DNA of 64,000 nucleotides from Escherichia coli (lineage in GTDB: Bacteria; Pseudomonadota; Gammaproteobacteria; Enterobacterales; Enterobacteriaceae), in the NCBI RefSeq assembly GCF_003334765.1, contig NZ_QOWT01000001.1; one strand, written 5' to 3'. Made by a program: the position numbers and the translations under genes. This document shows, in pieces, positions 7,438-46,827 of the stretch; the stretch's first letter is position 1, and each line of letters starts with the position of its first letter. Below the pieces are notes generated by a model. The model worked only from the letters and a program-made list of their open reading frames with translations. It searched no databases and was not told the origin of the DNA.

Positions 7438-8079
7438 ATGAAAAACTGGAAAACAAGTGCAGAATCAATCCTGACCACCGGCCCGGTTGTACCGGTTATC
7501 GTGGTAAAAAAACTGGAACACGCGGTGCCGATGGCAAAAGCGTTGGTTGCTGGTGGGGTGCGCGTTCTGGAAGTGACTCTGCGTACCGAGTGTGCAGTTG
7601 ACGCTATCCGTGCTATCGCCAAAGAAGTGCCTGAAGCGATTGTGGGTGCCGGTACGGTGCTGAATCCACAGCAGCTGGCAGAAGTCACTGAAGCGGGTGC
7701 ACAGTTCGCAATTAGCCCGGGTCTGACCGAGCCGCTGCTGAAAGCTGCTACCGAAGGGACTATTCCTCTGATTCCGGGGATCAGCACTGTTTCCGAACTG
7801 ATGCTGGGTATGGACTACGGTTTGAAAGAGTTCAAATTCTTCCCGGCTGAAGCTAACGGCGGCGTGAAAGCCCTGCAGGCGATCGCGGGTCCGTTCTCCC
7901 AGGTCCGTTTCTGCCCGACGGGTGGTATTTCTCCGGCTAACTACCGTGACTACCTGGCGCTGAAAAGCGTGCTGTGCATCGGTGGTTCCTGGCTGGTTCC
8001 GGCAGATGCGCTGGAAGCGGGCGATTACGACCGCATTACTAAGCTGGCGCGTGAAGCTGTAGAAGGCGCTAAGCTGTAA
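7438..8079 (+). CDS. eda: KDPG / KHG aldolase
   Basis: ORF 213 aa ([40 protein letters not shown]...), immediately downstream of edd. Confidence 0.95.
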
Positions 8080-44027: not shown

Positions 44028-45389
44028 TTACTTCTCCAGTTGCTTCAGGATACGATTAACTTTATCAAAAGTTTCCTGATATTCCGCTTCTTCCTGGCTA
44101 TCGGCGACAATTCCACCGCCCGCAGAGCAGAAAATTTGTCCGTTAATGGCAGTCAGCGTGCGGATAGTAATACTGGTATCCATGTTGCCGCAAAAGCTCA
44201 AATAGCCAATGCTGCCGCACCAGGCATTGCGTCGCTGCGGTTCCAGTTCGTCGATAATTTCCATAGCCCGTACTTTCGGAGCCCCGGTTATTGAGCCACC
44301 AGGAAAAGCTGCGCGCAGCAGATCGCTGGCGTGTAACTGTTCTGGTAGTTGCGCCGTTATGGTGCTGACCAGATGATGCACGGCAGGGAAGGGTTCCACC
44401 ACGAACAGCTCTGGTACTTTTACCGAACCTGCTACGGCAACACGACCGATATCATTACGCATTAAATCGACAATCATCAGATTTTCGGCACGATCTTTCG
44501 CTGAGTTCGCCAGTTTTACTGCTTGTTTGCTATCTTCCTGAGGATCGGGCAGGCGTGGTAGCGTGCCTTTAATCGGGCGGGTCTGGATTTCACTATTATC
44601 ACAAAGAATAAACCGCTCTGGCGAAAGGCTTAAAATTGCACCCTGTTCAAGACGTAAAAAAGCGCTAAATGGCGCGCGGTTGGCCTGATTAAGCTGAAGG
44701 AATGCCTGCCATTCATCGCCAGAATAGGTCGCATGAAAACGTTGGGCGAGATTCACCTGATAGCAATCACCGCTGTGCAGATATTCCTGTACCTGGCGAA
44801 ATTTTTCGCCGTACTGCTCGCGGGTCATATTGGATTGCCAGTCGGAAGTGAGCGTGAAATCTTCCTGCGGCGAGAATTGCTGGCTTTCCAGCCAGGCCCG
44901 ACGGGCATTGACATCATTATGACTCAGCAAAGAAACTGTATGACGCTGGTGGTCGACAATGAGCGCCCAATCGTAGATACCCACTGCCATATCCGGCAGA
45001 ACGATATCTTGTTCCGCAATTTCTGGCAGTGACTCAAAACGGCGGCCCAGATCGTAGCCAAACAACCCCAGTGCGCCGCCCTGAAATGGCAAATCTTCGT
45101 TATGCGTTGGGCGAATGTCTGCGCGATCCAGCACCTGCTGGAGCACCTGTAGCGGGTCATCAGTGGTCGTTGTGCGTTTTTCGCTTTCACTAACAACGGT
45201 TTCTTTACCGAAAGTGGTTAAAGTGCAAATCGGCTCGGCGACCACAATATCAAAGCGGCTATACGGATGATCGGCATAGCCGGAGTGTAAAAGCATCGCC
45301 CACGGCAGGTGGCTTAAGCGGGAGAAATAAAATTCAGCGGCGTCCTGACGCCAGGGTAAAGTAATCACAGCGGGAGATAACGTCTTCAT
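44028..45389 (-). CDS. pabB: aminodeoxychorismate synthase component I
   Basis: ORF 453 aa, chorismate-binding enzyme family (MKTLSPAVITLPWRQDAAEFYFSRLSHLPWAMLLHSG...). Confidence 0.93.
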   Translation of the reverse strand: MKTLSPAVITLPWRQDAAEFYFSRLSHLPWAMLLHSGYADHPYSRFDIVVAEPICTLTTFGKETVVSESEKRTTTTDDPLQVLQQVLDRADIRPTHNEDLPFQGGALGLFGYDLGRRFESLPEIAEQDIVLPDMAVGIYDWALIVDHQRHTVSLLSHNDVNARRAWLESQQFSPQEDFTLTSDWQSNMTREQYGEKFRQVQEYLHSGDCYQVNLAQRFHATYSGDEWQAFLQLNQANRAPFSAFLRLEQGAILSLSPERFILCDNSEIQTRPIKGTLPRLPDPQEDSKQAVKLANSAKDRAENLMIVDLMRNDIGRVAVAGSVKVPELFVVEPFPAVHHLVSTITAQLPEQLHASDLLRAAFPGGSITGAPKVRAMEIIDELEPQRRNAWCGSIGYLSFCGNMDTSITIRTLTAINGQIFCSAGGGIVADSQEEAEYQETFDKVNRILKQLEK

Positions 45390-45462
45390 CAGTCCTGACT
45401 CTACTGGCTATGTGCCGGGTAGCATGAAATAATTAGCGCCAACAATTTAGCAGGAGTTAACA

Positions 45463-45642
45463 ATGTTTGCAGGTTTACCTTCACTCACCCATGAACAGCA
45501 GCAAAAAGCTGTCGAGCGGATCCAGGAACTGATGGCACAAGGGATGAGCAGCGGCCAGGCAATCGCGCTGGTGGCAGAAGAGCTGCGTGCCAACCACTCC
45601 GGCGAGCGAATCGTGGCGCGTTTTGAGGATGAAGACGAGTAA
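45463..45642 (+). CDS. yoaH: UPF0181 small protein YoaH
   Basis: 59-aa ORF ([59 protein letters not shown]) with RBS AGGAG; not in ORF track (<60 aa). Confidence 0.85.
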
Positions 45643-45696
45643 CACACTAATCCGTATCGATTTCGTTATAGAAGCCGATGATCATTTGATTGTGAG

Positions 45697-45735
45697 AAAA
45701 AGGACGCTTTTTATATGTGATTAAAAGCGTCCTGA
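45697..45735. terminator. bidirectional hairpin between convergent yoaH and yoaC
   Basis: stem aaggacgctttt/aaaagcgtcct around an 11-nt loop, with flanking A/T runs. Confidence 0.55.
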
Positions 45736-45761
45736 CCCATTTATGCTGATATAAATTTAAC

Positions 45762-46061
45762 TCAGACCAGTGCTTTTAGTTCTTCCTGCATATATGTTGA
45801 AAAGTATTCAGGATTTTTAATCACAGAACGTTCACCTGTCTCCATTTTTTTTGCCCATCCAACCATTTTTTCCGTGAACCCAGGGTTCCAGCCTTCCTGG
45901 TCAGCTCGCGCCGTAATATCAGCGGCACTCGCGGGTACTCCCAGTTCTTTTAAATATTTAAAGATTCCCTTCGCCGTGCTTTCATTCATCGAACTTGGTG
46001 TTGGCGCTGATACATCCATGGCACCAATGAAATCCAGGGCTTTATCTATTACAGCAGGCAT
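45762..46061 (-). CDS. yoaC: DUF1889 protein YoaC
   Basis: ORF-track frame 45762..46121; start placed at ATG 46059-46061 (MPAVIDKALDFIGAMDVSAP...), which has an AAGGAT RBS 7 nt upstream; 99 aa. Confidence 0.75.
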   Translation of the reverse strand: MPAVIDKALDFIGAMDVSAPTPSSMNESTAKGIFKYLKELGVPASAADITARADQEGWNPGFTEKMVGWAKKMETGERSVIKNPEYFSTYMQEELKALV

Positions 46062-46482
46062 ATTCTTATCCTTAAAATTAACCATGTTATCGATAAGGCT
46101 ATATATGACCTTAATTTGCATCTAATATCAAAGGGATTATAACGATATGGCACGAGTTAACCTGTTGACATTCAGGTGTTTTAAAGGTAGCAGCTCATGG
46201 TGTGTTATCCAGTAAGATGGAGAAATTTAACGGTCAGTCCGCACGCTATAACCAGATTGTTCAGCTAAGAAAGAAAACCAGAGTTGCTAATCAAAGGGCG
46301 AACACAACGGCATGTTTATGTTTATTTATATAGTTAGTTTTATAGATAAAATTGAAATTATAAATATAAATAATGAATTAGCAGAAGCATCAACAGTAAT
46401 ATCTTATTCTCTGGTCGATTTATGTAAAACCGACCAGTATTATCGATAAATTATCGTCTGACTTATTTTGCTTCGATAAAGC

Positions 46483-46827
46483 TTACACCGCAGCCACAAT
46501 CTTAATTTCAACTTTATACTTCGGGTTCATCAAACCCGCTTGTACCGTGCAGCGCACCGGCGCATGACCCGCGACAACCCAGGCATCCCACGCTTTATTC
46601 ATCGCCGCGAAGTCGTTTTTATCGGCCAGGAAAATGGTGGCATCCAGAATGCTCGATTTATTGCTGCCCTGTTTTTCCAGCACGGCGTCAATCTGTGCCA
46701 GCGTGTTGGCGGTTTGCTCAAAGGCATCGGCGTCGAGGTTTTCCGGTACACCAGTGTAGTAGAGCGTGTTGTTGTGGATTACTACATCAGACCAGCGGGC
46801 TTCAGCATCGATACGAACGATAGTCAT
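46483..46827 (-). CDS. yoaB: RidA/YjgF-family protein YoaB
   Basis: ORF-track frame 46483..46875; start placed at ATG 46825-46827 (MTIVRIDAEARWSDVVIHNNTLYYTGVPEN...) giving 114 aa. Confidence 0.85.
   Translation of the reverse strand: MTIVRIDAEARWSDVVIHNNTLYYTGVPENLDADAFEQTANTLAQIDAVLEKQGSNKSSILDATIFLADKNDFAAMNKAWDAWVVAGHAPVRCTVQAGLMNPKYKVEIKIVAAV

Follow-up and report, generated by a model that had tools for sequence, protein, structure and literature searches.

Does a reading frame of 59 codons, too short for the usual list of open reading frames (ORFs), represent a genuine gene, and what might its product do? The question is raised by positions 45463-45642 (plus strand) of a stretch of Escherichia coli DNA of 64,000 nucleotides, here called the window. 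The frame starts with ATG and comprises 59 codons and a stop; by direct reading and by the ORF list, its translation is identical to the 59 residues quoted in the preliminary description of this DNA. The default threshold for listing ORFs is 60 amino acids. The frame is one codon short of it and, for this reason, is absent from the first-stage ORF track.

The first half of the question is easily answered. The ORF is an already known, annotated gene, yoaH, of the YoaH/UPF0181 family, which we take to be b1811 in E. coli K-12. As the result of a genome scan it matters little, since almost all E. coli genomes have it annotated and its family is catalogued. It shows, though, how a cut-off of 60 amino acids hides genuine conserved genes. 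The second half is more demanding. In E. coli K-12, YoaH is still uncharacterised. As a small target it is tractable from three leads: its kinship with VxrE of Vibrio, the marked, uncomplemented fitness defect of Salmonella deletions, and an unusually conserved putative promoter and initiation region. The features to be discussed are the following.

45425-45433, plus strand: putative extended -10 element of yoaH, TG-a-AATAAT, invariant or nearly so in 16 Enterobacterales genera
45452-45456, plus strand: Shine-Dalgarno sequence AGGAG, six nucleotides 5' of the yoaH ATG
45463-45642, plus strand: yoaH coding sequence, 59 amino acids and stop, backed by annotation, NF003476, PF03701 and purifying selection
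45466-45477, plus strand: codons 2-5 of yoaH, TTT GCA GGT TTA, with near-absent synonymous variation
45701-45711/45723-45733, both strands: hairpin with an 11-bp stem and an 11-nt loop, about -14 kcal/mol on either strand, resembling an intrinsic terminator for yoaC

Identity and annotation of yoaH

A sequence search recovered a 501-base stretch around yoaH from 5425 of 5426 complete E. coli genomes. On an identical E. coli stretch the RefSeq labels are pabB, yoaH ("YoaH family protein") and yoaC, with pabB divergent from and yoaC convergent with yoaH, and many E. coli genomes have an annotated YoaH of exactly this protein sequence. The NCBIfam equivalog profile NF003476, whose curated cut-off is 72 bits, scores 114.2 bits (E 1.5e-33), residues 1-59 being aligned to profile positions 1-60 of 60. 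Pfam PF03701 (UPF0181) covers residues 1-49 with model positions 1-49 of 50 (E 3.2e-29). The preliminary description had proposed a protein homology search, with a lack of homologues as the outcome that would speak against the gene; instead, a word-indexed search found 640 homologues in many enterobacterial genera, named YoaH family or UPF0181, and scanning all 1.84 billion cluster representatives yielded 94 clusters at 50% identity, many of which are fragments or frameshifted calls. What had been read from the letters alone, i.e., the name yoaH, the family UPF0181, the neighbours and the uncharacterised function, agrees with the annotation and the HMM searches; the AGGAG ribosome-binding site, the divergence from pabB and the convergence with yoaC are likewise present as described.

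A mobile or defence-related origin was considered and rejected. A PADLOC scan at yoaH gave zero matches to defence systems, the only PHROG match and the only "phage" record both look like chromosomal DNA, and the "plasmid" matches are chromosomes or chromids. The record in question, OR851204.1 (2464 bp; "Salmonella phage S.Kent 1-2-1"), contains yoaH at 769-945, 90% identical to that of E. coli. It looks like a fragment of a bacterial chromosome and may explain the PHROG family phrog_29644. An Rfam scan of 44900-46700, with E values up to 1, returned zero RNA families.

Coding status and conservation

A search for loci, seeded with an alignment of nine YoaH sequences, left 80 loci, all from Enterobacterales and all from different species. 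Each of the 80 carries an intact, ATG-started yoaH ORF of 59-103 amino acids, the length differing because the acidic tail varies. Between the gene of the window and that of E. albertii there are 20 differences, and all 20 are at third codon positions. The median dN/dS of 59 Enterobacterales comparisons, each against E. albertii, is 0.07, and the nucleotide diversity at codon positions 1, 2 and 3 amounts to 0.20, 0.12 and 0.52, respectively. By these patterns of substitution yoaH is clearly protein-coding and under strong purifying selection. The ORF is far above chance expectation, since the HMM scores exceed their threshold, the frame is intact in all loci and the substitutions are nearly all synonymous.

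Residue conservation was judged on an alignment of 31 diverse family members. A33, I34 and R42 are invariant therein; Q13, A16, E18, I20, G27, V37 and A38 are conserved in at least 90%. YoaH carries the core of the family, L-T/S-H-x-x-Q-Q-x-A-V-E-x-I-x-x-L-M-x-x-G-M-S-S-G-x-A-I-x-x-V-A-x-x-x-R, a criterion that applies to proteins of about 50-100 amino acids.

Putative promoter and initiation region

The start codons of pabB (ORF 44028-45389, minus strand) and yoaH are separated by 73 bp. In an alignment of 16 genera this spacer is poorly conserved except for two blocks, TGaAATAAT (45425-45433) and CAGGAGT (45451-45457). The former is also visible in an ungapped consensus of 79 loci; the latter is invariant in the 16 genera and at least 90% conserved in the 79 loci. 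From this conservation we infer that TGaAATAAT is an extended -10 promoter of yoaH, with a predicted transcription start at about 45440 and a leader of about 22 nt. The element came out of the multi-genus alignment only: a generic promoter scan, for which a -35 match is obligatory, detected zero -35/-10 pairs at yoaH. A conserved promoter element for pabB was not visible in the same 16-genus alignment of the spacer. With its putative promoter and a strong ribosome-binding site, yoaH is probably a stand-alone transcription unit.

The constraint extends into the coding sequence. Across about 79 species, codon 2 is TTT in 65 of 65 cases, codon 3 GCA in 54 of 54, codon 4 GGT or GGA in 74 of 78 and codon 5 TTA in 63 of 68; from codon 6 on, synonymous codons vary freely. 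Codons 2-5 are thus probably subject to a constraint at the nucleotide level that concerns the translation-initiation region, and the pattern suggests either a constraint on the RNA or the site of a regulator.

Two details of this region may be added. The GCAGGAG that contains the Shine-Dalgarno sequence is followed by a second GCAGG within yoaH. Directly 5' of the ATG, positions 45460-45462 read ACA, the triplet cleaved by MazF. In a study on MazF, yoaH is listed among the transcripts cut near the start codon, with a value of 3 that may give the distance to this codon (PMC5001579).

The hairpin 3' of yoaH and the probable insertion of yoaC

The preliminary description had also placed a strong bidirectional hairpin at 45697-45735. 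The hairpin proved to be real, with its stem and loop at 45701-45733; its bidirectional character is not borne out by the sequence. A bidirectional terminator should have a stable, G+C-containing hairpin, which is there, and, immediately after the stem, a U-tract on each strand, which is found on one strand only. On the minus strand the stem is followed by the T-run TTTTTCTC, 28 nt past the yoaC stop. On the plus strand, 58 nt past the yoaH stop, the tail is GACCCATTTATG and lacks a U-tract. Since the T-run is confined to the minus strand, the structure reads as a standard intrinsic terminator of yoaC, its sequence lending no support to a bidirectional function, and its effect on yoaH transcripts is uncertain. 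The terminator scan did not call this hairpin because its loop exceeds 8 nt.

The yoaC ORF (45762-46121, minus strand) is 119 amino acids long if read mechanically. The RefSeq gene has 300 nt and 99 amino acids, its annotated start therefore being an internal ATG. Among the 80 Enterobacterales loci, yoaC is present only in those of Escherichia; in 74 others, yoaH is directly convergent with yoaB and the 3' ends of the two genes are a few bases apart. The region of yoaC and its flanks (45650-46500) has a GC content of 33-43%, compared with 50-56% around it. Because of its restricted occurrence and this low-GC patch, yoaC seems to have been inserted in Escherichia specifically, together with a terminator of its own.

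Gene neighbourhoods across orders

Gene order is uniform across the 80 Enterobacterales loci: sdaA-nudL-pabB, then yoaH on the opposite strand, followed by the convergent yoaB and yoaA. In loci of the Vibrionaceae type, the UPF0181 gene is the fifth after genes for a DUF3404 histidine kinase, an OmpR-type regulator, a DUF2861 protein and a TraF_2 (or NnrS) protein. Other loci have it with TraF_2 alone, in one case with truC and a cold-shock gene, and in another with fabV-yciH and lolCDE. The context is not conserved between orders, and guilt by association is, therefore, a weak argument here. Gene order offers one operonic clue, envelope stress in Vibrio, and nothing general.

Some of these loci deserve mention in their own right. 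In L093 (1942-3404) and L094 (1343-2805), the gene of a TraF_2 outer-membrane barrel (VxrD-like) is followed by the UPF0181 gene, with no vxrA, vxrB or vxrC upstream. VxrD and VxrE may thus form the more persistent unit. In L002 (1012-2118) and L003 (3054-4151), single ORFs combine a signal-peptide-bearing DUF2861 (VxrC-like) part with UPF0181, and the TraF_2 gene is missing. At first sight such an ORF is a Rosetta-stone fusion that would place YoaH in the periplasm. We dropped this argument: the inner YoaH ATG is kept in both products (P0166, P0187) and is preceded by AGGAG in L002, so that the ORFs may be two coupled genes rather than true fusions.

Kinship with VxrE of Vibrio

Judged by family profiles, YoaH is a member of the same family as VxrE (VCA0569), the product of the fifth gene of the envelope-stress operon vxrABCDE (WigKR). 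A V. cholerae protein (P0218) that is labelled "YoaH family protein" and matches PF03701 is encoded after pntAB, a DUF3404 kinase, an OmpR-type regulator, a DUF2861 protein and a TraF_2 barrel. In the RefSeq annotation of Vibrio sp. HDW18, the first two genes of the corresponding series are called vxrA and vxrB and the fifth again "YoaH family protein". The link is a small connecting observation and not a discovery, as it is visible in RefSeq product names.

The two proteins share more than the Pfam and NCBIfam family. They are of similar size (VxrE has 53 amino acids), VxrE contains the core LTHxEQQxAVEKIQxLMAEGxS...AI..VA..IR, and identity with E. coli YoaH is about 50% over 48 residues. They also differ. 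The tail of VxrE is rich in Lys and Gln, whereas that of YoaH is acidic. The gene vxrE shares its transcript with those of a two-component system, of a periplasmic DUF2861 protein and of a TraF_2 outer-membrane barrel; E. coli yoaH, in contrast, stands alone next to pabB with its putative own promoter. None of vxrA-D was found beside yoaH in the E. coli window or in the 80 Enterobacterales loci, where yoaH is flanked by the divergent pabB and by a convergent gene, yoaC or yoaB.

Co-transcription of vxrABCDE (VCA0565-0569) has been reported (PMC4441509). Known functions in this operon belong to VxrA and VxrB, VxrC is a periplasmic inhibitor, and the roles of VxrD and VxrE are described as minor and undefined (PMC4441509, PMC7695739, PMC10237652, bioRxiv 10.1101/2022.11.18.517169). 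Deletion of vxrE in V. cholerae causes a minor colonisation defect with a CI of 0.70, and the authors state that no member of the operon resembles a characterised protein (PMC4441509). The vxrCDE genes are dispensable for the VxrAB-dependent activation of vadR in V. cholerae (PMC7695739).

In the V. cholerae locus L087, the Shine-Dalgarno sequence of vxrE (AGGAG) forms the 3' arm of a hairpin with 7 bp, GGCTCCT-TTA-AGGAGCC (7978-7994). The vxrE ATG follows at 8001, just past this hairpin, and a canonical terminator is found 3' of the gene. The arrangement could serve translational control of vxrE.

Predicted structure

An AlphaFold2 model of YoaH, built with the 31-sequence alignment, has a helix at 10-25, a tight turn at G27-M-S-S, a second helix at 30-51 and a disordered acidic end. 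The mean pLDDT is 78.6, and values exceed 90 in the core. The fold would thus be a two-helix hairpin, after which come the conserved short segment "IVARF" and the acidic tail, predicted to be disordered. The sequence counts 11 Asp/Glu and 5 Lys/Arg; throughout the Enterobacterales loci the tail is acidic, and in some genera it is about 45 residues long. Read by eye, the N-terminus lacks the hydrophobic core of a signal peptide, and for this reason YoaH is presumably cytoplasmic. The conserved T9 and S30 lie at the predicted helix starts and may be N-caps, i.e., of structural rather than functional significance. H10, Q13, Q14, E18 and R42 may occupy surface positions.

Comparison of folds and of solved structures gave zero informative matches. 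In sequence searches of the PDB, with the single sequence as well as with a profile, nothing significant emerged, the best entries being designed proteins and a MerR-type domain (E 0.044). An AroQ chorismate mutase, considered owing to the neighbour pabB, was discarded, as there was no match in fold or sequence, catalytic residues included.

Phenotypes and expression

YdgH has a role related to the cell envelope. In an E. coli ydgH mutant, yoaH is among the ten most up-regulated genes (PMC12356324). The gene was also recovered in an overexpression screen for resistance to oxidants (PMC8228696). What the papers found on yoaH offer is evidence of the genetic kind or at the level of transcripts.

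A strong phenotype comes from Salmonella Typhimurium 14028. Deletions of its yoaH (STM14_2205), made with the cassette in two orientations, had CIs of 0.16 and 0.15 on muskmelon and of 0.08 and 0.05 in LB, compared with about 1 in PBS; the mutants were outcompeted as severely as those in holC or holD (PMC12767474, Table 4). The phenotype was neither complemented nor discussed by the authors (PMC12767474). A cis effect of the deletions on the pabB promoter is possible because the spacer is so short.

Possible modes of action

What, then, does the protein do? An acidic hairpin of this size is too small to house a catalytic site, and its charge is wrong for binding DNA, which leaves protein binding as the most likely activity. 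Given also the conserved surface and the acidic tail, we consider it rather probable that YoaH acts in this manner. Its role would be that of a small adaptor or modulator of a partner protein, possibly in the envelope or the general stress response. A small protein-binding modulator is also our best guess for its function as a whole, and one of low confidence. To name the partner is more hazardous still: the more specific idea, in which YoaH modulates a signalling protein (for instance a histidine kinase) of an envelope or stress response, has only a small chance of being correct.

The same idea can be widened. YoaH and VxrE would then be a widespread gammaproteobacterial type of small cytoplasmic modulator that acts on a conserved signalling or growth-related protein; the target could be a histidine-kinase or response-regulator domain involved in envelope-stress sensing, and the defect of the Salmonella mutants in LB would reflect loss of the protein, not a side effect on pabB. 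Taken together, these propositions are speculative and rather unlikely to hold in full. If they did, a first function would be assigned to a "y-gene" shared by the 80 Enterobacterales loci and by almost all of the E. coli genomes searched, and the last gene of the vxr operon of Vibrio would be accounted for.

A more specific version invokes analogy. Sda of Bacillus subtilis is a helical hairpin that binds the dimerisation domain of a kinase. YoaH and VxrE might be cytoplasmic anti-kinases or connectors of this kind, VxrE tuning VxrA/VxrB and YoaH another two-component system of enterobacteria. Inhibitors of the Sda type indeed resemble YoaH in size and in the two-helix hairpin, which for YoaH is a predicted one, and in Vibrio the family gene adjoins that of a histidine kinase. 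Its place after vxrA-vxrB is conserved in several loci of the Vibrionaceae type, the five genes are co-transcribed (PMC4441509), and the response of yoaH in the ydgH mutant (PMC12356324) fits. Yet, in the assay of vadR activation, the output of VxrAB does not depend on vxrCDE (PMC7695739), and the phenotype of vxrE is minor (PMC4441509). The UPF0181 gene, moreover, also occurs with TraF_2 alone, without a kinase, and by itself in Enterobacterales, and there is zero sequence similarity or significant fold similarity of YoaH to Sda or known connectors. On balance, this analogy is doubtful, albeit the best of the alternatives.

Could the region matter mainly as DNA or RNA, because it holds promoter or leader elements of pabB, so that the deletion phenotype is just mis-expression of pabB? 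The 73 bp between the start codons, the lack of a visible conserved pabB promoter therein, the near-invariance of codons 2-5 and the uncomplemented Salmonella phenotype (PMC12767474) would all be in line with this. Past codon 6, however, the constraint is on amino acids, as seen from the dN/dS of 0.07 and the diversity of 0.52 at third as opposed to 0.12 at second positions, and this level of constraint contradicts a mainly cis-acting role. The family also persists away from pabB in other orders, and both orientations of the cassette caused the same phenotype (PMC12767474). We regard a mainly cis-acting role as very improbable.

Just as improbable is that YoaH is a miniature helix-turn-helix (HTH) protein that binds DNA and regulates the divergent pabB/yoaH promoter region. 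The divergence from pabB, kept in 80 of 80 Enterobacterales loci, invites the idea, and there are weak, non-significant matches: the Pfam families RsmI_C HTH (E 0.053) and HTH_63 (E 0.063) and, from the PDB profile search, the MerR-type DNA-binding domain of CarA (2jml, E 0.044) and the HTH of Mu transposase (2ezk, E 0.95). But not a single significant match to a DNA-binding HTH domain, be it in sequence or in fold, was obtained. The model has two helices and neither a third helix nor a wing, and a protein with 11 acidic versus 5 basic residues and an invariably acidic tail is ill-suited to the task. Also, the spacer contains no conserved operator-like element beyond the -10 and Shine-Dalgarno sequences of yoaH itself, and in Vibrio and other lineages the UPF0181 gene is not beside pabB.

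Least credible of all is that YoaH represents one unit of the CpxP/Spy/ZraP kind, i.e., a chaperone-like or metal-binding stress protein built as a helical hairpin with the LTXXQ motif: its first helix opens with LTHEQQQ, a whole-library search matched it to the secreted repeat proteins P0139 and P0206 with their "LTPEQRQQV...GKTPxEI" hairpins (hhalign against P0206: 60% probability, E 9e-5), and P0206 has a faint Pfam match to Metal_resist (ZraP-like; E 0.012), but hhalign, run with the YoaH alignment against Spy of E. coli, gave a probability of 1% over 14 columns, on which ground the kinship was rejected, the Pfam scan of YoaH found neither LTXXQ nor Metal_resist, T9 and S30 at the predicted helix starts may be mere N-caps, and YoaH lacks the signal peptide that would be expected by analogy to the periplasmic Spy, CpxP and ZraP. 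What YoaH has in common with these proteins is the LT-x-E-Q helix start, the helical-hairpin build and a loose tie to envelope-stress loci; homology is not detectable, and YoaH is a third of their size.

The repeat proteins themselves are of some interest. P0139 (347 amino acids) and P0206 (227 amino acids; L096, 5001-5684) carry three to six YoaH-like hairpins of the pattern LTPEQRQQV..KELREQGKTPxEIRAAIAEMLKGWG, and the N-terminus of P0206 resembles a signal peptide.
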